Under the pieces are notes generated by a model. It was not told where the DNA came from. It did not search any database and worked only from the letters and a program-made list of their open reading frames with translations. The translations under genes were made by a program, and so were the position numbers. Below are positions 2,483 to 14,167 of a stretch of 62,813 bases of DNA, one piece after another. The stretch covers positions 1 through 62,813 of IMG/VR virus record IMGVR_UViG_3300030118_004366; one strand, written 5' to 3'. The DNA comes from a virus. The first letter of the stretch is position 1; each line of letters begins with the position of its first letter.

Positions 2483-2555
2483 TCTATTTAATTCTATTTT
2501 TTATGACGTGAATGACAAAGTAAAGTAATAATATAGATGTAAGTAAATATAAAAT

Positions 2556-2563
2556 CAAAATTA
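2556..2563 (-). promoter_or_regulatory. Bacteroidota-type -7 box (TAATTTTG on minus strand) upstream of primase gene
   Basis: Plus strand reads caaaatta, the reverse complement of TAATTTTG, which matches TAnnTTTG. It lies about 75 nt upstream of the ATG at 2482 in a 214-nt intergenic gap. Confidence 0.45.
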
Positions 2564-2696
2564 TTCTGTCTATCGTTTTATTTAATTTGAGTTAGTCATA
2601 GTCAACATAAAAAAGGGGAAGGTTAAAATGTAGTAATGTGAATTCTCTCTTCACCTATCCCCTAAATTATGCCGTGCCTTTCGGCTTCCAAAATTT

Positions 2697-2942
2697 TTAG
2701 AATCCCAAGTCGTCCTGAGGTTCAGGCTTCCAAGTGTTCACTTCAACAGAATGAGTTTTGCCATATTCGTCAGTCTCTTTTTTCTTGTTGACTTTGAGTT
2801 TAGTGTACCACTTACCTTCGTACTCGAACCTATGTTCTTGTGGAATCTTTGATAGGCAAACACTAATCTCAATTAGATTACCGTCAAACTTTTCAACTCC
2901 GCTTCCACAATATAACTTTTCGTTCTTAACTTCTGTACTCAT
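2697..2942 (-). CDS. Small protein with SSB-like acidic C-terminal tip (possible minimal ssDNA-binding protein)
   Basis: 81-aa ORF ending ..PEPQDDLGF, which resembles the SSB C-terminal tip ..DDDIPF. It sits in the replication operon. Confidence 0.6.
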   Translation of the reverse strand: MSTEVKNEKLYCGSGVEKFDGNLIEISVCLSKIPQEHRFEYEGKWYTKLKVNKKKETDEYGKTHSVEVNTWKPEPQDDLGF

Positions 2943-2943
2943 A

Positions 2944-3174
2944 TTATTTAATTTTAATATTACGCTCCAAAATATTCACAGCATTTAGAATGGTTGACTC
3001 CCTTTCCTCTTTGCTCATGTAGATAGTTGGAACTTCTATCCACAATTTTTTATCATCAGTTTTATAACGACGTTTAAACGACTTATAGAACTTCTGTATA
3101 TATGTAATCATTGATGTCGCAAGGCGCATCATTACTAAAAAATTTCTCATAAACTTTAATTGCTTTTTTAACAT
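2944..3174 (-). CDS. Hypothetical small protein (start uncertain; internal ATG at 3111 gives 55 aa)
   Basis: ORF-track entry. It overlaps the 3' end of the exonuclease gene, so the shorter form starting MITYIQ.. is more plausible. It contains CGTTTAAACG (read as ..SFKRR..). Confidence 0.4.
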   Translation of the reverse strand: MLKKQLKFMRNFLVMMRLATSMITYIQKFYKSFKRRYKTDDKKLWIEVPTIYMSKEERESTILNAVNILERNIKIK

Positions 3175-3883
3175 TGTCTTCTCCTTTGTCTATAAACTCT
3201 TGACTCGTAGGGAAAACTTTTAATAACCCATCGTTCTTACCTATAGCCACAAAGACAAACGGTTTACCAAACAACTGCTGGTATATGTAGGCTTGTGAAT
3301 TGTAGCAATAAGCAGAACATGAATGTCTAAACTTGAATATGTCAGAGCTGGTTTTTAAATCTACAACAGCTCCGTCTGGATAATCCATAATAAAAGTCTC
3401 ACCGTCATGCTCAATCTCCAGCTCAAATGGTTCGTGAACCAATACATCACACTTGCCTTTGAACATGTGTCCATGTATTTCTTTTATGTTAGGTACTTCA
3501 TACTCAGTATTAACACCGTATACCAAATCAAATACAGTCCAGTTACTTAACATCTTATCAACCAACTCATCTAACGCTTCCTTTTCTTTTGTCAAAAGGA
3601 CATCGTACTGGTCAAGCTGTTGCTCAATCTTATACTGTTTAAACGCATTGGTTGTTCTTGATGAAGCATTGAATACTGGTATCGTGTCTATCTTTTCTGG
3701 CTCCAGAATTTTTGTATGAAAGTACCTTCCTTGTAATAAGGGTAAAGTCTTTTCTGATTTATTAAAGTCAGTAGGCTTGTAAAGTAATTGTCTGATATTA
3801 GAAGCAGATAAAAACTGCTTTCCAAACTTCCCATAATACTCTGAATCCTTTTGAAGCTTCTTAAGTATCTTACTTCTTTCCAT
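3083..3883 (-). CDS. PD-(D/E)XK (RecB/Cas4/YqaJ-like) recombination exonuclease
   Basis: 266 aa with ..GKCDVLV.., ..AVVDLKTSSD.. (D-x-K) and ..SQAYIYQQ.. (QxxxY) motifs. It is translationally coupled to the annealase gene by a 14-nt overlap. Confidence 0.75.
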   Translation of the reverse strand: MERSKILKKLQKDSEYYGKFGKQFLSASNIRQLLYKPTDFNKSEKTLPLLQGRYFHTKILEPEKIDTIPVFNASSRTTNAFKQYKIEQQLDQYDVLLTKEKEALDELVDKMLSNWTVFDLVYGVNTEYEVPNIKEIHGHMFKGKCDVLVHEPFELEIEHDGETFIMDYPDGAVVDLKTSSDIFKFRHSCSAYCYNSQAYIYQQLFGKPFVFVAIGKNDGLLKVFPTSQEFIDKGEDNVKKAIKVYEKFFSNDAPCDINDYIYTEVL

Positions 3884-4463
3884 TAATAGCTTTCTTGAGT
3901 TTAGTTTTAATGGCAGGAGTTACCTTATACTTTGTTGACAGCTGTGCCACAATGTAATCCAAACCTTTATCTTTATTCTTAGCTACGTACATCAAGACCT
4001 TGTCCCACTTGTCTGTAGTTAATTCAAAGGTTTGCTCCTTCTGAACAGGTTTATCTTTCACTTCTTTCACTTCGTTTAAACGACCTGTGTCCTCCCCTAT
4101 CCATAACGATAAACCAAGGCCGTGCATAGCTATTGCTTTTGCTGTAGCTCTTTGCACTGAATTGTTTACATTGAAAGAATTAAGTTTTGTAAGAGGAATA
4201 GGTCTATTCGCATTATCAAGTATAGGTAGATAATCGATGTGTTCAATACCATTAATAACAATACCAACTTTAACATTTGCAAACTTGCCGTCAGTAAAAT
4301 AGGGCATACCCATTTCATTTTCATACACGATTCTGTTTGCAGTTGGATACTCTTGCTTAACGTAATGCCAAGCCCAAGCCCAAGATAAATAAGGATAAGC
4401 TCCTTTCTTTTCAACCTTATCGGCTACTGAGATTGCACTCAGATTTTTATAAACATTTTCCAT
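3870..4463 (-). CDS. Single-strand annealing protein, Sak/Rad52-like (DUF1071-type)
   Basis: 197 aa with ..PYLSWAWAWHYVKQEYP.. and ..VQRATAKAIAMHGLGLSLWIGED.., which I recognise as Sak/Rad52-like hallmarks. It lies adjacent to the exonuclease gene. Confidence 0.7.
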   Translation of the reverse strand: MENVYKNLSAISVADKVEKKGAYPYLSWAWAWHYVKQEYPTANRIVYENEMGMPYFTDGKFANVKVGIVINGIEHIDYLPILDNANRPIPLTKLNSFNVNNSVQRATAKAIAMHGLGLSLWIGEDTGRLNEVKEVKDKPVQKEQTFELTTDKWDKVLMYVAKNKDKGLDYIVAQLSTKYKVTPAIKTKLKKAINGKK

Positions 4464-4464
4464 A

Positions 4465-4857
4465 TTATAATTTATTAAGTTCTGATTTTAAATTTGTATA
4501 CTTATTAAGTAACGTTTCCCTGCGGTTCTTTAAGTTCTGAATATGCTTATCGTTCTTACGAGTATTCAATTCAGTCTTAATTCTTGATTCAATTATAGCC
4601 AGCTTATGTAAGCAGTTGCTCATGCTAACTTGCGTACAACCCTTACGCCAGCCGTCTCTATAAAAGAAATCATACTCTTCATCGGAACACTCTTTAAAAT
4701 AGTCACCGCCTTTTCCCATGTTGAGTATTTGGACACCGTCTTCAAACTCCTGAATCTTTACACCCCTACCAATAACACTTACACCTTTCGGTAATATGTT
4801 CTTAATACTTTTAGGGTCTTCCAAAGCTTGCTTCATGATATCACTACGTTTAAACAT
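4465..4857 (-). CDS. Hypothetical protein
   Basis: 130-aa ORF tightly packed in the operon. Its start codon overlaps a GTTTAAAC copy (MFKRS..). Confidence 0.6.
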   Translation of the reverse strand: MFKRSDIMKQALEDPKSIKNILPKGVSVIGRGVKIQEFEDGVQILNMGKGGDYFKECSDEEYDFFYRDGWRKGCTQVSMSNCLHKLAIIESRIKTELNTRKNDKHIQNLKNRRETLLNKYTNLKSELNKL

Positions 4858-4858
4858 T

Positions 4859-5164
4859 CTAAACTTTTAAGTTCATTAATTCAATATGATTGACGATAGC
4901 TTTATAATCTTCATCTTCTTCTACCATTTTCTTAGCCTTTTTATAACCATGAATGATAGTCGAATGAAAGACGTCGCAACCATGCTCAGCCATATACCTC
5001 TGTATATAAGAGACTCTAATAGGTCTTTCCATACATAGATAATAAAGCATTTGTCTGGCGTCAACCAAGTCTCTTCGTTTATCTTTATTAAACATCTCAT
5101 CTAATTGAAGATGAAATTGTTTAGCAACCGCGTTTGCATACGCTTCAAATATATCTGCTTTCAT
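4859..5164 (-). CDS. DnaA domain IV-like helix-turn-helix DNA-binding protein
   Basis: 101 aa. ..DLVDARQMLYYLCME..SYIQRYM....FHSTIIHGYKKA.. parallels the DnaA C-terminal ..aRqiAMYL..DHTTVlHA.. pattern. Confidence 0.6.
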   Translation of the reverse strand: MKADIFEAYANAVAKQFHLQLDEMFNKDKRRDLVDARQMLYYLCMERPIRVSYIQRYMAEHGCDVFHSTIIHGYKKAKKMVEEDEDYKAIVNHIELMNLKV

Positions 5165-5514
5165 TATTTAAATTCTTTTAGTTTTTCATTTTTGCCCTTT
5201 ATGAGCATGTCTTTAACTCTATTCTCTTCCTTACGTATTTGCACAAGAAGAAGGATTAAGTATCCCGTAATATCTCTTACAGTATCTACTCCACTTTCGT
5301 CTTTCATAGGGTCACTACCTATATGATTGATAGAAAGCTTTTTTATTCTACTAAGCTTATCGTCTATACGAGCAAGTAATCCTTCTTTAGCAGAAAGTTT
5401 GCTGAAAATTTGTGGTGGATTATTAGCTGTATCACCATAAGCTTTATTCTTTTCAAGTAGAAGAAGAACAACTTCTTTACCTACTTCTTTAATTAAGTCT
5501 TGAGTCTTACTCAT
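5164..5514 (-). CDS. DUF1599 / MazG-like all-alpha protein (nucleotide-modification-associated domain 1-like)
   Basis: 116 aa. ..LEKNKAYGD....ARIDDKLSRIKKL....ITGYLILLL.. fits my memory of the DUF1599 pattern (KN.DYG ... DK..RI). Confidence 0.5.
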   Translation of the reverse strand: MSKTQDLIKEVGKEVVLLLLEKNKAYGDTANNPPQIFSKLSAKEGLLARIDDKLSRIKKLSINHIGSDPMKDESGVDTVRDITGYLILLLVQIRKEENRVKDMLIKGKNEKLKEFK

Positions 5515-5656
5515 AAATAAATTTTAATACGTTATAAATTATAAATGTAAATACCATTACTACAACCACAGCTCCTAAAAATTCCATGAATTTATATTGA
5601 GCTTCGCGCTGTTTAAACGACCTGCCCTGTCTATATCTTTTATCTTCTTCTGTCAT
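5507..5656 (-). CDS. Hypothetical 49-aa protein with C-terminal transmembrane helix (not in ORF track)
   Basis: Hand translation: MTEEDKRYRQGRSFKQREAQYKFMEFLGAVVVVMVFTFIIYNVLKFIYE. It has an ATGA overlap with the upstream ORF and an 8-nt overlap with the downstream gene. Confidence 0.4.
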   Translation of the reverse strand: MTEEDKRYRQGRSFKQREAQYKFMEFLGAVVVVMVFTFIIYNVLKFIYE

Positions 5657-5832
5657 ATAAATAGTGGAGGGTCTTCATCATTCTTTCCCCAAGGAATTGG
5701 AGGAAGCTCAGGCTTTGGCTTTGGTTTCTCTTCTTTATCTCCTTCCTTATCCTTGTCAATAGGAAATAAACTATTAAGAAATCTATCAAAGACTTTGTTT
5801 TGATATTCAAATTCGTTATTAAAGTGTGCCAT
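5653..5832 (-). CDS. Hypothetical 59-aa protein (not in ORF track)
   Basis: Hand translation: MAHFNNEFEYQNKVFDRFLNSLFPIDKDKEGDKEEKPKPKPELPPIPWGKNDEDPPLFI. It is preceded by a -7 box at 5863..5870. Confidence 0.45.
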   Translation of the reverse strand: MAHFNNEFEYQNKVFDRFLNSLFPIDKDKEGDKEEKPKPKPELPPIPWGKNDEDPPLFI

Positions 5833-5862
5833 AGTATTGTATTTAATTTAATTTAATTGCAA

Positions 5863-5870
5863 CAAATTTA
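5863..5870 (-). promoter_or_regulatory. -7 box TAAATTTG (minus strand)
   Basis: Plus strand reads caaattta. It matches TAnnTTTG and lies about 31 nt upstream of the ATG at 5832. Confidence 0.4.
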
Positions 5871-6038
5871 TACATTTTGTTTTAATTTTGCAAACAAACT
5901 GACAAATTTATAGACCTCATGTTTAAACAGATACTTGCCAGAAGCTGGACAATAATAGCTGTACACTTTGTCTTGAACCTTCACAACTTTTTGACCAGAA
6001 GCCTTGCTTCTCATTTCAAATGGTAACATATCCTCCAT
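5868..6038 (-). CDS. Hypothetical 56-aa protein (not in ORF track)
   Basis: Hand translation: MEDMLPFEMRSKASGQKVVKVQDKVYSYYCPASGKYLFKHEVYKFVSLFAKLKQNV. It has a TAATG overlap with the upstream gene and contains GTTTAAAC. Confidence 0.4.
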   Translation of the reverse strand: MEDMLPFEMRSKASGQKVVKVQDKVYSYYCPASGKYLFKHEVYKFVSLFAKLKQNV

Positions 6039-6271
6039 TAGTAATAAGGTTTATTTTCTATTGCATAATCCCTAACGTCTTCTTCTAAATCATCTTTAAC
6101 ATAATCCCAGAAAAAATCTGTTATCTCAAAGCCGTCGACTAATACTCTTAATATTGTCAGCTCATCTTCTGGAGGTTGTTCCCAAGTTCCATTGTCCCAA
6201 TAATATTCATAATCAACTGCTACATAATAGCTGTCGTATTCTTTGCAATATGTTCCGCTATACTTACTCAT
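6038..6271 (-). CDS. Hypothetical very acidic, aromatic-rich small protein
   Basis: 77-aa ORF rich in D/E/Y/W, with overlapping stop and start codons with its neighbours. Confidence 0.6.
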   Translation of the reverse strand: MSKYSGTYCKEYDSYYVAVDYEYYWDNGTWEQPPEDELTILRVLVDGFEITDFFWDYVKDDLEEDVRDYAIENKPYY

Positions 6272-6738
6272 AGTTGTAATGGTTGTACGTTTAAACGATG
6301 TATAATCTCATGCTCTATCTCATCGTATTGTTTGTTGAAAAAATCTTGAGCGTCCTCAGTGTATTCTAAAGTGTCTGAATCATTATCTGCATAAGTCATG
6401 TGACCAAACTTTGCTTCGGTTACTCTGTTTGCAAGGTGACATATCACAGAAATAAAATCTGAATTGTCTACCACCCGCTCGTTTAAACGGACTTCAATAT
6501 CATAGTCATCACGGAGTCCTTCAATGAGGTGAACCGTGTACATGTTTTCGTGGACGTGGTCTAATAGTTCTTGTATCTGACTTAAGTCATCAGAAGCTAT
6601 CCAACCTTGACCCCACAGCATGTTAGCTACATTAGATAGTTCATTGAAGCCAACGAAATGATACGTGCTCATGTATCGTTGGTCTAAGTCTATACTAATA
6701 TAGTGTTCGCTTTTGTTTTTCATTTTTGCTTTTGCCAT
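6268..6738 (-). CDS. Hypothetical acidic protein
   Basis: 156-aa ORF containing two CGTTTAAACG copies (read as VRLNE and HRLNV). Confidence 0.65.
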   Translation of the reverse strand: MAKAKMKNKSEHYISIDLDQRYMSTYHFVGFNELSNVANMLWGQGWIASDDLSQIQELLDHVHENMYTVHLIEGLRDDYDIEVRLNERVVDNSDFISVICHLANRVTEAKFGHMTYADNDSDTLEYTEDAQDFFNKQYDEIEHEIIHRLNVQPLQL

Positions 6739-6739
6739 A

Positions 6740-6961
6740 TTATTTTGATTTTAAATTATACTTTTCTCTTGCTATAATATCAATAGATTCGAAGATGGTT
6801 TCATATACCGCCTCGCAACTAAGGGCGTCGTTTAAACACTCCCATGCCGTGTCGTCATCGCACTTGTAATTTTGCTGTACGTCTTCAACATGCCATAAGC
6901 TATCAACATATCCCTTGTCTTTTAATTGTTTTCTAAGTTCTTGAGTTTCTTTGTATCCCAT
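6740..6961 (-). CDS. Hypothetical acidic small protein
   Basis: 73-aa ORF with AAAATTTATTAT directly upstream of the ATG. Confidence 0.6.
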   Translation of the reverse strand: MGYKETQELRKQLKDKGYVDSLWHVEDVQQNYKCDDDTAWECLNDALSCEAVYETIFESIDIIAREKYNLKSK

Positions 6962-6971
6962 ATAATAAATT

Positions 6972-7343
6972 TTAAAGGTTATAAAAATATTCTGTCTCGT
7001 CGCGATGTTTAAACGCTATCGCTTGAGCTTCAAGTCGTTGGTCTGGGTGAACGCAAATGAATTTGATTCTCATAAAAAGATTTGATGAGTCACCCCACAC
7101 ACAACGATACTTAATCTTTGCTTGCCGTAGTTTCTTGCAGAAGCTATCGACTTCATTGTTCGCAGTCTCATACCATTGGTCTGTAAAGTTACAACCACCA
7201 ACAGCATTGACTGGCTCCAACCATGAACGCCAAGCGTCCAGCCTGAAGACTTTTGTTTGTGTAGTATTAATATGCACTGGCTTGTCTTTTTTGGTTATCC
7301 TCATAGCTACATGAAGACCAGAAACAGTCAGCATGAAAGCCAT
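6972..7343 (-). CDS. Hypothetical protein (start uncertain)
   Basis: 123-aa ORF. It overlaps the 3' end of 7267..7593 by 77 nt. An internal Met (MRITKK..) would shorten the overlap. Confidence 0.55.
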   Translation of the reverse strand: MAFMLTVSGLHVAMRITKKDKPVHINTTQTKVFRLDAWRSWLEPVNAVGGCNFTDQWYETANNEVDSFCKKLRQAKIKYRCVWGDSSNLFMRIKFICVHPDQRLEAQAIAFKHRDETEYFYNL

Positions 7344-7593
7344 TGGTTAAGTTATGATAGTATCTCTTCAGCTTTTCATTCAGCGCGTTTAAACGGTCTA
7401 TGCTTTTCCAGTCTGGAACATTGCAATCACCGTCAACTCTTCCCAGCATACCACCACCAAGGTAGTTTTGATATGCCGTCATCTTTCCGTTTGGGTAGCC
7501 CCACTTTTTTAAGTCTATCTCAATTCCGCCACCGCGTGGGCTAACTTGTTGACGAATTATAGACTGTTCTATTCTCTTAACTCTCATAGCCAT
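7267..7593 (-). CDS. Hypothetical protein
   Basis: 108-aa ORF in operon context. It contains CGTTTAAACG (read as DRLNA). Confidence 0.55.
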   Translation of the reverse strand: MAMRVKRIEQSIIRQQVSPRGGGIEIDLKKWGYPNGKMTAYQNYLGGGMLGRVDGDCNVPDWKSIDRLNALNEKLKRYYHNLTNGFHADCFWSSCSYEDNQKRQASAY

Positions 7594-7895
7594 ACGTTTG
7601 CTGATTTGATTTTATTTGGGTCTACGTCCCTTTCAATTATCTCTGTGCTTACGCCTTGAACTGATGAGTCTTTAAGCTTATAGCATTTAGTTAGCTGAAT
7701 AAACTCTACGACTTTGCCCTGACGTTTAGTCGAGCTTAGATGTTCAATAGCTTCTTTTAAAGTATCAAAAGACTTAGTCTTTTTGTTTGGGTTCTGCCAT
7801 GTGTTGGCATGAGTCAAGGCTTTACCTTTGCCGTTATGAATTTCATAATGGTCAACGGTTTCCATGATTGTCCCGTAAATAATGTTCTGTTCCAT
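7584..7895 (-). CDS. Hypothetical protein
   Basis: 103-aa ORF with AAAATTTAT directly upstream of the ATG. Confidence 0.6.
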   Translation of the reverse strand: MEQNIIYGTIMETVDHYEIHNGKGKALTHANTWQNPNKKTKSFDTLKEAIEHLSSTKRQGKVVEFIQLTKCYKLKDSSVQGVSTEIIERDVDPNKIKSANVWL

Positions 7896-7951
7896 ATAAA
7901 TTTTATTTAATTATGCGTGGCGTTTAAACGGGTGCCACACTTTACCCTTAG

Positions 7952-8034
7952 TGGAAGGTGGGGGACTCGAACCCCCGTGGTTCACTTACGAGCTTTCGCT
8001 ACAAGGAACTACACGCACCATGCTCCAACCTACG
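7952..8034 (-). ncRNA. tRNA-like RNA lacking an anticodon loop (degenerate tRNA or tRNA mimic)
   Basis: Minus-strand 83-mer. It has a canonical T arm GGGGG-TTCGAGT-CCCCC (7960..7976) and a 5/7-paired acceptor stem CGTAGGT/ACCTTCC plus discriminator A. U8 is present, and the D arm GAGC-ATGGTGCGTGTA-GTTC carries A14, GG and A21. The anticodon arm position is occupied by an 8-bp bulged stem capped by GAAA. Confidence 0.45.
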
Positions 8035-8080
8035 GACTGACAAAATTTATACACAAAAGAACAGTCCGTTTAAACGTCTT

Positions 8081-8365
8081 CTACAATCTATCCATGAAGT
8101 CTTGTGCTAACTCCATTGGATTTGTAACATCTTCAAGTGCCCAGAACTCGATGAACTTTTCAGCGTCATCATACACGCCTTGAAATATTTGTTCATCGGT
8201 ACGCCAACGCTTGCGCTGGTCTGCACTCATGGTTTTGACTTTACCATTTTCAAGGAAATTAAATCGACTAAAACTTGTCGCTCCGTAATTAAAGAACACG
8301 TCTGAAATACTGAACGAAGTTGAGGTCATCATTAACTTACCTTTGTTTTTACTTATTGTATTCAT
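8081..8365 (-). CDS. Hypothetical protein (94 aa from MNTISKNK; the ORF track extends it to 8431)
   Basis: The ATG at 8365 is preceded by AAAATTTAAGTAT, the start context shared by neighbouring genes. Confidence 0.55.
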   Translation of the reverse strand: MNTISKNKGKLMMTSTSFSISDVFFNYGATSFSRFNFLENGKVKTMSADQRKRWRTDEQIFQGVYDDAEKFIEFWALEDVTNPMELAQDFMDRL

Positions 8366-8430
8366 ATACTTAAATTTTAAAATTCGTCTGCAATATACAA
8401 AATGTTTTTTAATTGTGCAAGCTTTGTACA

Positions 8431-8562
8431 TTAAAATATTATTTTTATTTGTTCACCCCGTTTAAACGCACGCGACTTTTTTTCGGCGATGAGCTTGTTT
8501 AAACGTCGTTGCTCTCTCGCTTTATAAACCGCGTGCATTATTTGTCTTTCTTTTCTGTGCAT
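8431..8562 (-). CDS. Possible 43-aa basic peptide (not in ORF track)
   Basis: Hand translation: MHRKERQIMHAVYKAREQRRLNKLIAEKKSRAFKRGEQIKIIF. It has TAATG overlaps at both ends and contains two GTTTAAAC copies. Confidence 0.3.
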   Translation of the reverse strand: MHRKERQIMHAVYKAREQRRLNKLIAEKKSRAFKRGEQIKIIF

Positions 8563-8807
8563 TAGTTTCGTCTTACGGTATAGTCTTCATTAATTAAAGT
8601 GAAGACATCGCTCCATACTTCAGACGGGACTTCAGCTTCATTCATACAATCGTTTATTCCCTCGAACAATCCGTCAACTGCCTTATCGTCAATCCCTCTT
8701 TGTTCTACGTGGTTATACCAGTGATGAGCTTGCTCCTCTTTACTCCATTCTTCAAAAGGAACGCCTGCTTCTTCTTCGGCTTCTAAAATGTGATTTGGTT
8801 TTTCCAT
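8562..8807 (-). CDS. Hypothetical highly acidic small protein
   Basis: 81-aa ORF rich in E/D, with AAAATTTATATT upstream of the ATG. Confidence 0.6.
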   Translation of the reverse strand: MEKPNHILEAEEEAGVPFEEWSKEEQAHHWYNHVEQRGIDDKAVDGLFEGINDCMNEAEVPSEVWSDVFTLINEDYTVRRN

Positions 8808-8833
8808 AATATAAATTTTAAATTAAACTTCGT

Positions 8834-9058
8834 TTAAACGTCCTCTATCTCATCTGAGTTAGTCAACATGCTTTCCGCAATTTCAAGAGACACAGACTCC
8901 AGAACTTCATAATAAATATAGTCACCGCCTTGGTGCATTTGCAATCCTGATTTGTCTGCAACCTTTTCAATGTGCGAAACTAATCTGCTTATCAAAGTGT
9001 AGTCACCGTCAATAGCGTCATAGATTTCTTTGGCTACTTTTCTTTCAATTTCTGCCAT
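8834..9058 (-). CDS. Hypothetical acidic small protein
   Basis: 74-aa ORF. Its stop codon TAA lies inside a CGTTTAAACG copy. Confidence 0.6.
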   Translation of the reverse strand: MAEIERKVAKEIYDAIDGDYTLISRLVSHIEKVADKSGLQMHQGGDYIYYEVLESVSLEIAESMLTNSDEIEDV

Positions 9059-9085
9059 AATATAAATTTTAAATTAATAACTCCT

Positions 9086-9105
9086 GCACCGCGTTTAAAC
9101 GGTGC
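9086..9105. repeat. Intergenic GC-armed palindrome around GTTTAAAC (module copy C)
   Basis: The sequence is GCACC-gc-GTTTAAAC-GGTGC, followed by aacgctttgagcttagtg. Confidence 0.8.
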
Positions 9106-9147
9106 AACGCTTTGAGCTTAGTGTTCTATTTATAGTCGCTCAATCGA

Positions 9148-9645
9148 CTATTCATCATCACTCCAATCATCGTCCCATTCATACTGGTTGTACTCATTGT
9201 ATTTAACATCTTCCCAATCACCCAGAGTTGTCTCTTTCTTTCTGCACTTATTTAAATCATTAAGTAAATCAATAAAATGACCAACAGCCATGGTATAATT
9301 TACAATGCGTTTAAACGACCCGCTTTTCAGCATGTCCTCTGCGTCTTTCCACATGTCGTACTCACATTGATACAGTTCTGAAGGGTCACCCCAATTAGAA
9401 TCCGCGCTGTGTAACCAATAGATATCATTACCTTGAGCGTCTGATTCTCTATCAATTACAAGAGTATCTGAACCAGTGTAATAACCGCTATTATGGTAGA
9501 GACAATAATCTTTTTCTCTATCTCCTAATAGTTCCCATTGCCACGGGCTGAAATTTCTTTTTAATTCTGCAACGTTGAGACTGCTACTGTCTTCACAGTT
9601 CCAACCGTTTTTTGTTCCGTAAATTTTTAATTCTTTTATAATCAT
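9148..9645 (-). CDS. Hypothetical acidic, Trp/Tyr-rich protein
   Basis: 165-aa ORF with C-terminus ..WDDDWSDDE. It contains CGTTTAAACG (read as SFKRI). Confidence 0.65.
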   Translation of the reverse strand: MIIKELKIYGTKNGWNCEDSSSLNVAELKRNFSPWQWELLGDREKDYCLYHNSGYYTGSDTLVIDRESDAQGNDIYWLHSADSNWGDPSELYQCEYDMWKDAEDMLKSGSFKRIVNYTMAVGHFIDLLNDLNKCRKKETTLGDWEDVKYNEYNQYEWDDDWSDDE

Positions 9646-10055
9646 AAGTTTTGAATTTTAGTTAATCTCTCTAATTTGTCCGAGTCGTTTAAACGCTCCC
9701 AGTCTGAGGGTGGTTGCCAATTTGGAATCTTGCTCCTCATTGTAGCAAATACAATCCTTTCTTTATACTTGACCGCGTCTGCTGTATCCTCCTTTTTATC
9801 ATTCATTAAATCCCCCATTAATAAAAAGGCTTTCATTGAATTTAGTATTGGGTCTGACTCTTTCTCTTTTTGGTCTTGCTTGCTCAAAGTCAAATTTAAT
9901 TCTCTGGCTACATAGTTAATATGTTTTTGAGTAGTTACTGACCAGTAGCCTAATTGAATCAATTTTGAGCCTTCAATAGTTGCTACATGTGTGCTGTAAG
10001 AAAATACTTTATTTCCTTCAACTTTTAGATTTTTATTATATCTTTTTAATTTCAT
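9642..10055 (-). CDS. Hypothetical protein
   Basis: 137-aa ORF with ..VFSYSTHVATIEG..LGYWSVTTQKHINYV... It has an ATGA-type overlap with the upstream gene. Confidence 0.65.
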   Translation of the reverse strand: MKLKRYNKNLKVEGNKVFSYSTHVATIEGSKLIQLGYWSVTTQKHINYVARELNLTLSKQDQKEKESDPILNSMKAFLLMGDLMNDKKEDTADAVKYKERIVFATMRSKIPNWQPPSDWERLNDSDKLERLTKIQNL

Positions 10056-10080
10056 ATTGTATAAATTTTAGTTAAACAAC

Positions 10081-10102
10081 GGACAACGTTTAAACGCTGT
10101 CC
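10081..10102. repeat. Intergenic near-palindrome around GTTTAAAC (module copy A)
   Basis: The sequence is GGACAA-CGTTTAAACG-CTGTCC, followed by cgctttgggcttaatg. Confidence 0.8.
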
Positions 10103-10123
10103 CGCTTTGGGCTTAATGCCTTT

Positions 10124-10333
10124 TTAACGTCGCCCAAACGACTCACGTACCAGCCCAATAATTAACACTGAGCTAACGTACATTAAGAATCCAACGAACA
10201 CGACAAAAGCGAACATTGTCAATCCTTGCTCTAAGGTCTTGACACTATCCAGCATGTGAATAATTACCCGACCTATAGCCGTGAGTAGAAAGAACCACGT
10301 CACGGCTAAAATTGATGTTTGAATTTTCTTCAT
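10124..10333 (-). CDS. Small membrane protein (two predicted TM helices)
   Basis: 69-aa ORF with two long hydrophobic stretches (AVTWFFLLTAIGRVII and FAFVVFVGFLMYVSSVLIIGL). Confidence 0.6.
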   Translation of the reverse strand: MKKIQTSILAVTWFFLLTAIGRVIIHMLDSVKTLEQGLTMFAFVVFVGFLMYVSSVLIIGLVRESFGRR

Positions 10334-10334
10334 A

Positions 10335-10712
10335 TTAAATTAATTTAGGTTTATAACTTGAGTGATTTGAAGGAAGAGTTGTAAAAGTATCATAACCCTT
10401 AGTCCATGAATCAAATTTCTTGATTAAGTTCTGTTGCTCCTTGTCCTCTTTTTCAGCCTGTCTTTTGGCTTCTTCTTCCTCTTCTTCTTCCTCTCTTCGC
10501 ATTTGCTCTTCATTGTCGTCCCAACGCCTTAGAGCGTCTTCAATTTCGTGCTTCATGGCCACGATTTCTTGACAATGTCCGAGCAGGTTTTCCAACCCGT
10601 CTCGCTCGTATTGGCTCATGTCTGTTGACATGTCGCCGTTCTGAATTGCTTCCTCGCAATCGCTTAAGTCTCTCGAAGTATTTTCGAATCGACAATATGA
10701 CATATTTCCCAT
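10335..10712 (-). CDS. Hypothetical protein with poly-Glu tract (start set at MGNMSYC)
   Basis: The ATG at 10712 is preceded by AAAAATTTATACT. The ORF-track extension to 10760 would run through the intergenic palindrome. It contains REEEEEEEEAKR. Confidence 0.6.
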   Translation of the reverse strand: MGNMSYCRFENTSRDLSDCEEAIQNGDMSTDMSQYERDGLENLLGHCQEIVAMKHEIEDALRRWDDNEEQMRREEEEEEEEAKRQAEKEDKEQQNLIKKFDSWTKGYDTFTTLPSNHSSYKPKLI

Positions 10713-10740
10713 AGTATAAATTTTTAAAGTTAAACAACCT

Positions 10741-10758
10741 GAGCCGTTTAAACGGCTC
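10741..10758. repeat. Perfect 18-bp palindrome GAGCCGTTTAAACGGCTC (module copy B)
   Basis: Read directly from the sequence. It is followed by aacgcttagggcttaatg, as in copies A and C. Confidence 0.9.
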
Positions 10759-10770
10759 AACGCTTAGGGC

Positions 10771-10899
10771 TTAATGTACTATTTCAAGACGCCCTAACGT
10801 CCCCAAACCTTTCACGAATTGACGCCATTCTTTGCGCGTTAGTTTAGCGCGCTTACGTGCTTTCGTTTGTCTGTTTGGCTTTGAGATTTTTAATATCAT
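10771..10899 (-). CDS. Possible 42-aa basic peptide (not in ORF track)
   Basis: Hand translation: MILKISKPNRQTKARKRAKLTRKEWRQFVKGLGTLGRLEIVH. AAAATTTATACACT lies upstream of the ATG. Confidence 0.35.
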   Translation of the reverse strand: MILKISKPNRQTKARKRAKLTRKEWRQFVKGLGTLGRLEIVH

Positions 10900-10916
10900 A
10901 GTGTATAAATTTTAGT

Positions 10917-10944
10917 TAATAAAAGGGGCGCGTTTAAACGCCCC
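10917..10944 (-). terminator. Hairpin plus T-run after the SprT-like gene (stem built around GTTTAAAC)
   Basis: The minus strand reads GGGGCGTTTAAACGCGCCCC followed by TTTTATTAA. Confidence 0.5.
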
Positions 10945-10951
10945 ATGTCAT

Positions 10952-11581
10952 TTAGTAATCTTGTTCGTTGTCCATTAGTCCACCGCAACCCGTAGGGCAT
11001 TGTATGTGGTCTGGAAGCATGTTAATATTCTTCCTTGACAATCTGAAACTGAAATCGCAACAATTACAGCTTACCTTCAAATTTCTCACCCCGTCCTTAC
11101 GTCCGCCCGTCATGACCTTAGCATGAGGGAACAAGCCTAACGGCTTTACAACGTTGGCTTTTAGATAATCTTCAAGCCATTCTGTTTCAGTTGTCGCGGT
11201 CATTTTACCTTTCAACCCTACAGCTGTAGCGCAACGTTTAAACGGTGCCCCGTGACCGCTTTTGCAATCATCAACGGCATGAACTAATTCATGAACAAGA
11301 ACGCCTAAAATTCTCAGCGTACCGCTTAAGCTGGTGCCGTCTAAATATGGGGTGATATTTACTTGATTAATTCCACTGTCACAAAGACCCGTTGGAAAGC
11401 ATTGTCCCAACACCTTAACGCCTTTACCGTGTTTTGTTCTGTTTCCTCTGGTTGCCCAGCTTACAGATAATTGAACCTTTGGCACTGTGTACCCTTTGTC
11501 CTTGAAGAGCCCCTTTCTTAGTATGTCTGTTGCATTTTCTAAGTAAGTTTCTCTGTTAGATTTTGACTTTTTATGTCTCAT
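10952..11581 (-). CDS. SprT/Wss1-like zinc metalloprotease with C-terminal zinc ribbon
   Basis: 209 aa with HExxH in ..LVHELVHAVDD.. and a Cys cluster ..CNCCDFSF...CPTGCGG... It is the first gene downstream of the early promoter. Confidence 0.8.
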   Translation of the reverse strand: MRHKKSKSNRETYLENATDILRKGLFKDKGYTVPKVQLSVSWATRGNRTKHGKGVKVLGQCFPTGLCDSGINQVNITPYLDGTSLSGTLRILGVLVHELVHAVDDCKSGHGAPFKRCATAVGLKGKMTATTETEWLEDYLKANVVKPLGLFPHAKVMTGGRKDGVRNLKVSCNCCDFSFRLSRKNINMLPDHIQCPTGCGGLMDNEQDY

Positions 11582-11609
11582 AATGTATAAATTTTGTATT
11601 AATTATGTA

Positions 11610-11617
11610 CAAATATA
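11610..11617 (-). promoter_or_regulatory. Early-arm promoter -7 box TATATTTG (minus strand)
   Basis: Plus strand reads caaatata. It is an exact TAnnTTTG match about 29 nt upstream of the ATG at 11581, at the head of the leftward arm. Confidence 0.55.
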
Positions 11618-12053
11618 GTACAATTCTATTAAAAAACAATAGCCAAACGAAAATATATTTTCATGCACCTGCCAACCTGCTTGTAACTTGCTGACGTTCA
11701 ATGACTTAGCCTGTTGAAAACTTTTATATTTTTTTTATATTTTGTTTTGTCTTTTGATTTATCGGGCGGGCATAACGGGGGAAATCTCTTTTCCTCTTCA
11801 ATTAAAAAACGTCAAACCTTCCCCCGCCCCTCAGCTCGTTTAAACGTTCAGACCCTCACCACGTTTAAACAATGCGCCCGCTTTTGCGGTCAACCTTGAC
11901 CCCGTTTAAACGCTGTAGAAAAAGCTAAAAAATCTGAGAAAAAATTTTTTTATTTTGCTTTGACCGACAAAATATTTTGACTTTCTGTTAGGGGGGTGGC
12001 GAACGTATAACGGGGTATTACCCTCAACCCCAAGATATCTAATAAAATTTTAT

Positions 12054-12568: not shown

Positions 12569-14167
12569 ATGAATAAGCAAGGTTATATTCCTAAGAATCT
12601 TCATTTTGATTCTGAAGGAAGAAAAAAATTAATATCAGGAATAGAAAAAATTTCCAACGCAGTTAAATCTACATTAGGCCCACGCGGGCAAACTGTTATA
12701 ATAGAAAGCACCGAACATCTTAGCGGAATGACCATAACAAAAGACGGAGTAACTGTAGCCCGTAGCATTTTCTTGGACGACCCTGTAGAAAATATAGCAA
12801 TACAAATAATGAAAGACGCTTCCAACCGTACAGCTAATTCAGCTGGCGATGGAACAACTACAGCAATCGTGTTGGCAGAAGCCTTTGTCAAGGCGGGTGT
12901 CAAGTATATGATACCAAATAACAATACCACACAAGTTGTTAGACATATAAACAAACTTGTACAAGATGTTGTAAAGTATTTAGAAAAAAATTCAAAGAAG
13001 ATTACAAACAGTAGTCTTTTAGATGTAGCTAAGATATCAGCCAATAATGATGCAGAGATAGGTAAATTAATATTTGATGCTTATCAGAAAGTTGGAAAGG
13101 ACGGAATAGTAACTGTTGAGCGTTCTCAAAACCATGAGACTTTCGCTGAAGTAACTAACGGTATCAAAGTAGATAGAGGATATTCATCTAACCTGTTCAT
13201 AAATAATCAAAAGAAGGATGAGTGTATATTAGAAAATGTCAAGGTTCTTGTGTGTGACCAAGACATTAATAACATACTTCAAATAGAAAGTGTGTTAAAA
13301 CCTATCATTCAAAAAAGCGAGACCTTGCTTATAATCGCTGATTGCGGAACGAATGTGGTAAATACACTTGCAGCAAATGTCGTAAGAAACGGTTTGAAGC
13401 TGTGTAATATACCGACTCCTTCGTTTGGTTATAAAAAACATGAGCTGATGCAAGACATAGCTCTTACATTAGGAGCAAAGTATTTGTCAGAAAAAACTGG
13501 TGACGATTTATCTACATTGTCAGAAGCTGACTTAGGTACAGCTGATAAAATTATTGTAGGTAAATCAAACTCTGTTCTCATTACTAATAACGAACCAAGT
13601 GAAGAATTAAAAATGAGAATAGATGAACTACGTATTCAAAAAGAAAATACTGAAACACCACAAGAAAGAAAATTTATAGATGAAAGAATAGCCAGCTTAG
13701 CTGGAGCTATCGGGTGTATCTACGTTGGTGGTAACTCAGATGTGGAACAAAAAGAAAAATTTGACCGAGTCGATGACTCGGTATGTGCAGTACGTTCTGC
13801 ACTGGAAGAAGGGATTGTTGCTGGAGCTGGACTTGCATTATATAATGCTTCAAAGACCATCGTAAGTAATAATAAAGATGCTGACTATAATACAGCATGC
13901 AATATTGTTAGAGAAGCTATAGTCCAACCATTAATACAAATATTAGAAAATGCAGGTATCAATCCCGAAAATATATTATCAGAAATAAATGACAAGAAAA
14001 AAAATTATGGATTTGATGTAAAGAATGAGAAGTTTGGAGATTTATTTAAACTTGGTGTTATAGACCCTTTGAAAGTTACAAAGAATGCTTTGATAAATTC
14101 AAGCAGTGTAGCAGCAACAATATTATCAACTAATGCAATCGTAACACATGCCAGAGTCAAAGAGTGA
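12569..14167 (+). CDS. groEL: Chaperonin GroEL (Cpn60)
   Basis: 532 aa with GPRGQTVIIE, ITKDGVTVA, SAGDGTTTAIVLAEA, DGIVTVE and GVIDPLKVTKNAL. It is collinear with bacterial GroEL and has no GGM tail. Confidence 0.95.
   Translation: MNKQGYIPKNLHFDSEGRKKLISGIEKISNAVKSTLGPRGQTVIIESTEHLSGMTITKDGVTVARSIFLDDPVENIAIQIMKDASNRTANSAGDGTTTAIVLAEAFVKAGVKYMIPNNNTTQVVRHINKLVQDVVKYLEKNSKKITNSSLLDVAKISANNDAEIGKLIFDAYQKVGKDGIVTVERSQNHETFAEVTNGIKVDRGYSSNLFINNQKKDECILENVKVLVCDQDINNILQIESVLKPIIQKSETLLIIADCGTNVVNTLAANVVRNGLKLCNIPTPSFGYKKHELMQDIALTLGAKYLSEKTGDDLSTLSEADLGTADKIIVGKSNSVLITNNEPSEELKMRIDELRIQKENTETPQERKFIDERIASLAGAIGCIYVGGNSDVEQKEKFDRVDDSVCAVRSALEEGIVAGAGLALYNASKTIVSNNKDADYNTACNIVREAIVQPLIQILENAGINPENILSEINDKKKNYGFDVKNEKFGDLFKLGVIDPLKVTKNALINSSSVAATILSTNAIVTHARVKE

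Follow-up and report, generated by a model that had tools for sequence, protein, structure and literature searches.

The window analyzed here is the whole 62,813-nucleotide (nt) stretch of the virus record IMGVR_UViG_3300030118_004366, to which all coordinates refer. It carries a small element related to transfer RNA (tRNA), read on the minus strand, for which limits of 7952 and 8034 were first proposed. The virus is a marine Flavobacteriia podophage, and the element is located in sense orientation between two cistrons of its early leftward operon. Comparison of the same site in related contigs shows that the element descends from a tRNA and has lost the anticodon loop, that its top half is kept while bodies are exchanged, and that it co-occurs with self-cleaving ribozymes. 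By this comparison the element is one allele of a tRNA-derived cassette and not a chance look-alike. The cassette is predicted to have no part in decoding and to serve as a punctuation signal for ribonuclease P (RNase P) and RNase Z, similar to the t-elements of plant mitochondria; a probability of roughly 0.4 is given to this role.

The element occupies a gap of 185 nt (7896-8080) between the minus-strand open reading frames (ORFs) 8431..8081 and 7895..7584, and these borders bear out an earlier statement, in a preliminary description of this DNA, that the gap is ORF-free. No larger gap is found in this densely packed array of minus-strand genes. All features listed in that description can be found on the minus strand, namely a T arm, an acceptor with 5 of 7 pairs, U8, a GAGC/GUUC D stem, a GAAA-capped stem, a promoter-like box, an inverted repeat, and a pair of CGTTTAAACG sites. 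The T arm GGGGG-UUCGAGU-CCCCC has the canonical form, a 5-base-pair (bp) stem ending in G53-C61 and a loop that follows UUCRANY. In the pairing first proposed, CGTAGGT (8034-8028) faces ACCTTCC (7959-7953) with 5 of 7 pairs, A7952 follows as the discriminator, and T8027 takes the place of U8. GAGC (8025-8022) and GTTC (8009-8006) enclose the loop ATGGTGCGTGTA, which contains ATGG.

A tRNA anticodon arm consists of a 5-bp stem and a 7-nt loop. At this position the stem of the element is longer and interrupted, and its loop is GAAA, with only 4 nt. The capped segment, CTTGTAGC-GAAA-GCT(C)GTAAG, spans 8005-7985, and its GAAA (7997-7994) is a GNRA tetraloop. GUG (8014-8012) may pair with CAC (7979-7977) in the folded model and extend this arm. 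In the register supported by comparison with relatives, the element starts at G8030 and ends with the discriminator A7952.

Standard searches do not recognize the element as a tRNA. ARAGORN at default settings found neither a tRNA nor a transfer-messenger RNA (tmRNA) in the whole window, and Rfam at its gathering threshold had no tRNA match in the window. The Rfam tRNA model, RF00005, gave no match at E <= 10 over the 401 nt of 7800-8200. The signals seen there at E <= 10 are T-arm fragments only. One is a local 17-18-nt T-arm match to the tmRNA model (12.4 bits, against a gathering score of 47), and the other is a match to Tymo_tRNA-like (11.8 bits, against a family gathering threshold of 40). 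A relaxed ARAGORN run (-ps80, an 80% threshold) called a 'tRNA-Tyr(GUA)' in the window and in the related locus L220. This register has an anticodon stem with 3 of 5 pairs, a weak D stem (G.U/A:G/G.U), and an acceptor with 5 of 7 pairs, and is no ordinary tRNA. Of the searches proposed in the preliminary description, ARAGORN and Infernal/Rfam found no tRNA in the window at default or gathering settings, and the ordinary tRNA that it thought might lie in an overlooked register amounts to this poor relaxed call. Its picture of a tRNA-like RNA without an anticodon loop is supported.

The expected number of T arms this good is 0.147 per dinucleotide shuffle of the window, and 44 of 300 shuffles have one. 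The fold energy of the element is ordinary compared with shuffles (z = -0.81). On sequence alone, then, the element does not reach significance. More than 10 related contigs retain its T arm, flanks, and position. The element is considered real because of this retention and because distant relatives carry a true tRNA at the same site.

The site was located in other contigs via both flanking proteins, and about a dozen distinct alleles were recovered. Their common parts are an upstream CGTTTAAACG, an inverted repeat with an A/T-rich box, CAGTCCGT, the T arm, and an A-CUAA(A)GGG trailer. Most alleles also have a downstream hairpin with CGTTTAAACG in its loop. Changes in the T arm are confined to loop position 59/60 and one G.U pair, and all preserve the structure. 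The body between the common parts is exchanged wholesale. Type A comprises the window and L220, whose GAAA-capped bodies are identical. Type B (L207, L218, L221-L223, L226, L230, and L233) has an AAGG/CCUU stem with a 7-nt loop, CUGAAGA or CUGAAAA. ARAGORN at default settings calls tRNA-Phe(GAA) in four of these alleles (L207, L221, L222, and L233), with two mismatches at the top of the acceptor, and from its sequence type B is a borderline tRNA-Phe(GAA)-like form. The Rfam tRNA model, used with a permissive E-value threshold on L220, L221, L223, and L226, found no match. Type C (L001, L003, L224, L225, L227, L228, and L231) has an 8-bp acceptor, UGGUGGGU/ACCCAYUA, a long composite arm, and no D region; the long arm of L003 is also GAAA-capped. 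L010 has a different body again, and its element lacks the A/T-rich box and begins right behind GTTTAAAC.

True tRNAs are found at this position in more distant relatives. The downstream protein of L208-L217 is 60% identical, and directly upstream of its gene lies a tRNA-Met(CAU) detected by Rfam (58.9 bits) and ARAGORN. This tRNA-Met is preceded by another tRNA-like element and by non-coding DNA of about 250 nt. The cultured relative Flavobacterium phage elemoE has a tRNA-Met inside its early operon. The suggestion that the element is a decayed tRNA gene fits this allelic series, in which a tRNA-Phe(GAA)-like allele has the same flanks and relatives have tRNA-Met. A call for covariation among homologues was answered in part. 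The T arm is kept with structure-preserving changes, while the GAAA-capped arm has no covariation and is identical in L220. DNA similarity searches against deposited phages found no match for the locus and one distant uncultured relative for the window.

The alleles also revise the secondary structure. The acceptor stem CGUAGGU/ACCUUCC of the preliminary description is not maintained in relatives, where the same register gives 5/7 pairs in L207, 4-5/7 in L220, and 4/7 in L223. In the register that is maintained, the six nucleotides just before AGCAUGGUGC pair with the six after 'CCCCC-A'. This pairing is AGUGGG/CCCAUU (6/6) in L220, L226, and L230, and GGUGGG/CCCAYU in type C alleles. In L207, GGUUGG/CUAACC reaches 6/6 only if the 3' strand is moved by one nucleotide. 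The window has GGUUGG/CCUUCC with 4 of 6 pairs and two central U.U, and neither register gives it a 7-bp acceptor. In the window GAGC and GUUC could form a D stem, an unlikely one. Type B alleles have GAGC and lack GUUC, and in minimum free energy (MFE) folds GUUC pairs better with GAAC, which lengthens the GAAA-capped arm. The GG of AUGGU is conserved. The supposed U8 is a G in L218 and L223.

For the window, the cloverleaf of the preliminary description has an energy of -16.6 kcal/mol, the comparative fold -23.5, and the MFE fold -28.0. In its details the cloverleaf is less secure than the T arm, the flanks, and the position. In the MFE fold of L220, which combines the body of the window with a clean acceptor, the acceptor, a small GCA-UGG-UGC hairpin, a 14-bp interrupted GAAA-capped arm, and the T arm form a four-way structure. 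A GAAA tetraloop/11-nt receptor contact (CAUGG ... CUAAG) was looked for by eye and rejected, as the receptor strands are not kept together in alleles with a GAAA loop.

A minimal version of the same design is found in other viral contigs. Four loci with a related primase, all from the phage family of the window, carry 42-44-nt elements that consist of an acceptor, a (C)AUGGU linker, and a T arm (L019 4278-4321, L023 1234-1276, L038 913-956, and L058 270-311). A scan of IMG/VR with the pattern ATGGT-N7-11-GGTTCGATTCC gave at least 112 unique matches (loci L234-L353), and the class is larger than this. Members of this mini class measure 40-46 nt (about 43). They lack a D stem and an anticodon arm and consist of a 6-7-bp acceptor, the AUGGU linker, and a T arm with UUCGAUU. 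The counts that follow are among the matches listed. The three T-stem pairs left free by the pattern are all formed in 103/112, and at least 6 of 7 acceptor pairs are formed from the immediately adjacent nucleotides in 76/112. When the 3' strand is slid downstream this number is 5-9, and it is 21 when the slide goes upstream into the element. The slid control is the unbiased pairing test. In alignment A3 (17 sequences), 11 of 12 pairs have both-sided changes, a count biased upward by the pre-selection of sequences with at least 6/7 acceptor pairs. None of the matches was called as a tRNA.

Mini elements tend to precede gene starts. Flanking ORFs are co-oriented with them 146:18, and 39 of 68 (57%) lie 10-75 nt upstream of the next same-strand ORF start, compared with 40 of 335 random positions. 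The usual distance from the start codon is 20-50 nt. CTAA stands right behind the discriminator in 17/114 members versus 4/228, and the window has CUAA as well. Rfam 15 has no family that matches the mini class, and a full-text literature search on phage tRNA-like and minihelix elements returned no description of it. Covariance model R1 recovers L038 (38.5 bits) and L058 (36.8 bits), which were not in its training set and belong to the phage family of the window.

The window element shares much with the mini class, including an acceptor strand followed by AUGGU, a UUCGANU T arm, the CUAA trailer that is frequent there, sense orientation, and a place just upstream of a gene. In mini elements, both of related phages and of IMG/VR, AUGGU directly adjoins the acceptor 5' strand, and in the window it follows within the 0-4 nt typical of the class (GGUUGG-AGC-AUGGU, 8030-8017). 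It is possibly a G18-G19 mimic that would make the elbow contact with the T loop. The differences are a 3-nt spacer, a weak acceptor, and about 40 nt of inserted hairpin that separate AUGGU from the T arm. Mini elements have a linker of 9-13 nt including AUGGU and a total length of 40-46 nt, whereas the window has 45 nt from the start of AUGGU to the T stem, about 30-38 nt of which form a hairpin arm. Membership by covariance model was tried and rejected, with only the T arm recognized and no significant score. Judged by sequence, the window element shares the design of the class (acceptor, AUGGU, T arm, CUAA) and is no member of it as modelled. A wider reading makes it a diverged, arm-bearing member of a large class of phage anticodon-less tRNA top halves, about 43 nt in minimal form, that would recruit host RNase P, RNase Z, and possibly the CCA-adding enzyme to set cistron 5' ends or release small RNAs. 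This reading is possible, though somewhat unlikely.

Locus L339 has at least five, and probably six, near-identical mini elements on the minus strand at about 8990-9800. They are spaced about 150 nt apart by spacers of the type AACAUAACAAAAC... The array resembles a non-coding RNA array with tRNA punctuation and is possibly a sponge for a protein binding A-rich motifs. It is ORF-free, and a function of the released RNA is therefore possible in some contexts.

The operon around the element contains self-cleaving ribozymes. Its three next-largest gaps (68-190 nt), which are consecutive, hold one Pistol ribozyme each, with GUUUAAAC in the P3 loop of every copy. Pistol cleavage would make the downstream RNA begin just before the GUUUAAAC hairpin. 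Pistol ribozymes also occur in the relatives L003, L207, L208, L218, L221, L224, and L226, and the relatives have the same mixture of Pistol ribozymes, tRNA-like elements, and tRNAs. In elemoE and in a contig from Manatee Spring, neither a mini element nor a Pistol ribozyme was found, and tRNA-Met alone is present.

The proposed mechanism begins with transcription of the element as part of a polycistronic early RNA. Host RNase P would cut at the 5' side, at about G8030 (or C8034 in the register first proposed), and RNase Z would cut at the 3' side, after A7952. The latter site is expected because Bacteroidota-type tRNA genes lack an encoded CCA, as seen in the tRNA-Thr genes recovered from metagenomes. 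Genes of this kind fit endonucleolytic 3' processing by RNase Z. The two cuts would part the upstream 116-aa cistron from the downstream 103-aa cistron, which would keep a short leader beginning with CUAAGGG and containing the GUUUAAAC hairpin. This outcome would parallel Pistol cleavage just 5' of the GUUUAAAC hairpin, and the element would be the host-enzyme-dependent counterpart of the three neighboring ribozymes. Any embedded tRNA, e.g., the tRNA-Met of relatives, would have to be excised in the same way. RNase P and RNase Z would need no more than the top half, which would leave the body free to be swapped, as it is among the alleles. With its weakened acceptor, the window copy may be a poor or decaying substrate.

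The closest known systems are the t-elements of plant mitochondria. PMC1920247 describes them as tRNA-like structures that serve as mRNA end-processing signals, where cleavage by RNase P and RNase Z defines mRNA ends. The phage element is likewise a tRNA-like acceptor and T arm without decoding, with an acceptor that is weak in the window and clean in L220, and it likewise lies beside protein-coding sequence, between cistrons on the coding strand of a polycistronic unit. It differs in belonging to a bacteriophage with a bacterial host, in having a GAAA-capped hairpin at the position of the anticodon arm, and in being cleaved only by prediction. It is also allelic with a tRNA-Phe-like gene and syntenic with tRNA-Met.

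Phage tRNA genes, represented by the tRNA-Met of elemoE and L208-L217, share its position, orientation, type of T arm, N-CUAA trailer, and need for excision. The element differs from them in lacking a 7-nt anticodon loop and a proper D arm, in its imperfect acceptor, and in being missed by default ARAGORN and RF00005. In mascRNA/MALAT1-type modules, the C4 RNA of phages P1/P7, and the CI RNA of P4, tRNA mimicry recruits RNase P (and RNase Z) and defines the ends of non-tRNA transcripts. These are single, well-studied cases with no known sequence relationship to the phage element, which belongs to a variable cassette family and whose processing is a prediction. The tRNA-like domain of tmRNA also has an acceptor and T arm, a reduced D region, and a long helix replacing the anticodon arm. 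Unlike tmRNA, the element has no mRNA-like domain or pseudoknots, measures 83 nt versus about 360, and receives no ARAGORN tmRNA call. Overall, the element is regarded as a tRNA-like processing module or a tRNA pseudogene.

Several observations weigh against punctuation. The relatives are so close that conservation of the T arm barely exceeds that of the flanking intergenic DNA. The GAAA-capped arm has no covariation, L220 being the only other type A allele and identical there, and arm stabilities are only marginally above shuffles (z -1.2 to -1.9; -1.67 in the window). The acceptor of the window is poor in either register (4/6 with tandem U.U, or 5/7), and mismatches are also found in L218, L223, and L231, which looks like relaxed constraint. 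Model R1 matches only the T arm of the window element (7976-7960, 11.7 bits, E = 1.3). Not all mini elements punctuate mRNAs, as the ORF-free, A/C-rich spacers of the L339 array indicate. Much of this suits the main rival, a functionless relic of a decaying phage tRNA gene that was tRNA-Phe-like and had itself replaced the tRNA-Met of distant relatives. Its body would have been scrambled by inter-cassette recombination, and its T arm would survive only through the recent divergence of the alleles. Imperfect acceptors (those named, and L207), a body free of covariation, unexceptional fold energies, flanks conserved about as much as the T arm, the failure of R1, and the absence of tRNA calls (default ARAGORN and Rfam for the window; Rfam at a permissive threshold for L220, L221, L223, and L226) are all expected of such a relic. 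Four further observations are not. Every allele keeps an element of about 80-115 nt although the operon is compact, its other gaps being minimal or occupied by ribozymes, all T-arm changes preserve the structure, each replacement body is a hairpin (GAAA-capped both in window/L220 and in L003), and anticodon-less top halves recur and covary in many unrelated viral contigs. A relic is a possible explanation, and a somewhat unlikely one.

The preliminary description also raised a small RNA acting in trans. The excised mimic would accumulate and titrate or block a tRNA-binding factor of the host, one that recognizes the elbow or the acceptor. This could be a defence nuclease directed at tRNAs, the CCA-adding enzyme, or a modification enzyme; alternatively, the RNA could be a handle used by a phage protein. 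Mimicry of the top half with an AUGGU/T-loop 'elbow' and tandem ORF-free arrays such as that of L339, in which the RNA product itself may matter, agree with this idea, and recent literature has numerous tRNA-targeting phage defences (PMC10264068, PMC11555353, PMC12445682, PMC13096335). The idea is an unlikely one. The position of 57% of the listed mini elements 10-75 nt upstream of a start codon points to a role in cis. In addition, no partner protein is evident, with the flanking proteins lacking a family match, and this RNA has neither the anticodon loop nor the variable loop at which most known defence nucleases acting on tRNAs cut. An unusual decoding tRNA, e.g., a class II tRNA-Tyr(GUA) with the GAAA region in a long variable arm, would account for the relaxed ARAGORN calls in the window and L220. 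Its poor stems, the missing default call, and the silence of the Rfam tRNA model bring this explanation close to refutation. The last rival is a phage attachment site (attP) that contains the 3' portion of a tRNA gene from the host. Many attP cores have a perfect T arm and acceptor 3' strand, as seen here, but no integrase was found among the scanned ORFs, and the acceptor 5' strand and a D-like segment are present too. Acceptor sequences vary between alleles on both strands, and the element is inside an early operon. The attP hypothesis is effectively rejected, ruled out by the absent integrase among scanned ORFs and the presence of both acceptor strands.

Features of the element and its surroundings in the window. 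Empty cells indicate that no value applies.
Feature	Position	Strand	Basis or remark
Upstream gene, 116 aa	8081..8431	minus	ORF list, family search; no family match
Upstream CGTTTAAACG palindrome	8067..8076		Directly after the stop codon of the 116-aa gene; one of 35 near-copies
8-bp inverted repeat ACGGACUG/CAGUCCGU enclosing an A/T-rich loop	8032..8069	minus	Fold -11.5 kcal/mol, z -1.91
tRNA-like element, limits first proposed	7952..8034	minus	83 nt
Acceptor 5' strand GGUUGG, register kept in relatives	8025..8030	minus	Pairs with CCUUCC 7958-7953, 4/6, tandem U.U
D-loop-like segment GCAUGGUGC with AUGGU motif (8021-8017)	8015..8023	minus	Conserved in type A and B alleles
Hairpin in place of anticodon arm, GUUC-CUUG-U-AGC-GAAA-GCU-CG-UAAG-U-GAAC	7980..8009	minus	MFE folds of window and L220
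T arm GGGGG(7976-7972)-UUCGAGU(7971-7965)-CCCCC(7964-7960)	7960..7976	minus	Sequence; local matches to T arms of tmRNA model and model R1
Acceptor 3' strand ACCUUCC, followed by discriminator A7952	7953..7959	minus	Sequence
CUAA trailer right behind the discriminator	7948..7951	minus	N-CUAA also after tRNA-like elements and true tRNAs of related phages
Hairpin GUGUGGC-(ACCCGUUUAAAC)-GCCACGC with downstream CGTTTAAACG	7915..7940	minus	Fold -11.2 kcal/mol; compensatory variants
Downstream gene, 103 aa	7584..7895	minus	No family match; in relatives, homologues come after a tRNA-like element or tRNA-Met
Pistol ribozyme	9078..9149	minus	Rfam RF02679, 60.0 bits
Pistol ribozyme	10075..10143	minus	Rfam RF02679, 61.7 bits
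Pistol ribozyme	10733..10802	minus	Rfam RF02679, 58.0 bits

The flanks contain CGTTTAAACG, which is a PmeI site. The two copies at the borders, the downstream one at 7930-7921, had been described as bracketing the element. They are not specific to it, since the window has 35 copies with <=1 mismatch versus 1.5 expected. The exact GTTTAAAC occurs 42 times, 27 of them within the first 12 kb. Over-representation of CGTTTAAACG spans 1716-11912, with other sites including 19656, 36301, and 62672, and copies are often found in hairpin loops. GTTTAAAC sites include the P3 loops of all three Pistol ribozymes and positions 18-46 nt upstream of about a dozen early start codons; three close copies are in the divergent control region 11838-11911. 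CGTTTAAACG may serve as an operator, as a promoter element, or as a boundary at which gene cassettes recombine. Gene cassettes inserted in relatives are bordered by duplicated 'AAGGGTAAAG-hairpin(GTTTAAAC)-AATTAAAT-ATG' modules. T4-type phages reportedly have mobile regulatory cassettes that shuffle early genes, and the modules resemble what is said of these. By analogy, a mobile-cassette model would explain the cassette-like swapping of the tRNA-like body.

The hairpin with the downstream CGTTTAAACG lies 19 nt upstream of the ATG of the next gene (7895). Its compensatory variants are GCGUGUC/GACACGC in L001 and GCGGUGCG/CGCACCGC in L207 and L220. On the other side of the element, the DNA arms of the inverted repeat are ACGGACTG (8069-8062) and CAGTCCGT (8039-8032). 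The putative promoter box TATAAATTTTG (8051-8041) is in the loop between them. The repeat could equally be an RNA hairpin, since A-to-G variants in L001, L220, and L226 retain a G.U pair.

A promoter of its own had been proposed for the element, and the case for it has weakened. The box matches TAnnTTTG at 7 of 8 positions and has no correctly spaced -33 TTTG. The strict Bacteroidetes-type promoter pattern TTTG-N17-23-TAnnTTTG has 8 matches in the window versus 5.4 expected, none upstream of the element, and the 16-mer box has no more than loose relatives elsewhere. The positional homologues in L010 and L208-L217 lack the box, and their element begins 0-4 nt after GTTTAAAC. As judged from these sequences, an independent promoter is unproven.

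A metagenome scan for homologues with the pattern CAGTCCGT-N57-87-GGTTCGAGTCCC was discarded as too loose. It yielded no homologue, and everything it matched was a bacterial tRNA, in most cases a tRNA-Thr of Bacteroidota that follows a CAGTCCGT terminator. Many Bacteroidota contigs (L088-L206) have the conserved terminator hairpin CAGTCCGTTAGAAATAGCGGACTTTTTT right upstream of a tRNA-Thr(TGT) gene without an encoded CCA. The phage element is preceded by the same 8-mer as that terminator contains, CAGTCCGT, perhaps by coincidence.

The genes of the window include a GroEL-like chaperonin, large terminase, portal, BT4734-like/VirE primase, Sak annealing protein, and PD-(D/E)XK protein. The terminase is closest (about 46% identity) to podophages of Flavobacterium (Elemovirus), Cellulophaga, Tenacibaculum, and Maribacter, and is 71.5% identical to that of one uncultured contig. 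IMG/VR has at least 271 contigs with a related primase. The chaperonin is full length (12569-14167, plus strand; PHROG 5725, E = 2.6e-134) and is also found in the Manatee Spring relative. Early in the 103-aa ORF there is a near-perfect conserved hairpin, ACCGUUGACCAUUAUGAAAU/UCAUAACGGCAAAGGU (window 7808-7877; L223 1222-1289), with weak matches to the mir-451 model (19.8 and 26.2 bits).

Distant relatives have further structured sequences at the locus. The second tRNA-like element of L208 (3565-3640), also present in L210, L213, L214, and L217, is right behind CGTTTAAAC and upstream of the true tRNA-Met. It is bounded by AAGGCGG...CCGCCUU and has two T-arm-like hairpins, GGGG-GUCGAAU-CCCC and GGAGG-UGCAAAU-CCUCC. 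Downstream of tRNA-like elements there is a conserved non-coding motif of the form ..AAAUCUGGAA..UUAUUCCAGAACCACUGAGCA-(variable hairpin)-UGUGGAUAGAAGGGAUAAAA, seen in L208 3640-3800 (and L209-L217) and L230 170-300, with a similar one in L010 1270-1350. It is absent from the window and has no match in Rfam at gathering threshold. This motif could be another structured RNA or ribozyme.

The element is of added interest for having led to a widespread, unannotated class of tRNA top halves and to a tie with clustered Pistol ribozymes. If it is cut by RNase P and RNase Z, Flavobacteriia phages, and from the IMG/VR scan many others, would punctuate their operons in two interchangeable ways, with self-cleaving ribozymes and with tRNA mimics that rely on enzymes of the host. 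A concrete role in intercistronic processing would then fall to the clustered Pistol ribozymes of phages, and the mitochondrial principle of 'tRNA punctuation' would extend to bacterial viruses. The top half of tRNA has long been argued to be the older, self-sufficient half of the molecule, and these elements would be natural, selected 'minihelix' top halves. They are missed by tRNA finders and Rfam and are thus currently unannotated in phage genomes. If this undescribed class is real, it would give phages a protein-enzyme-dependent equivalent of intergenic self-cleaving ribozymes.

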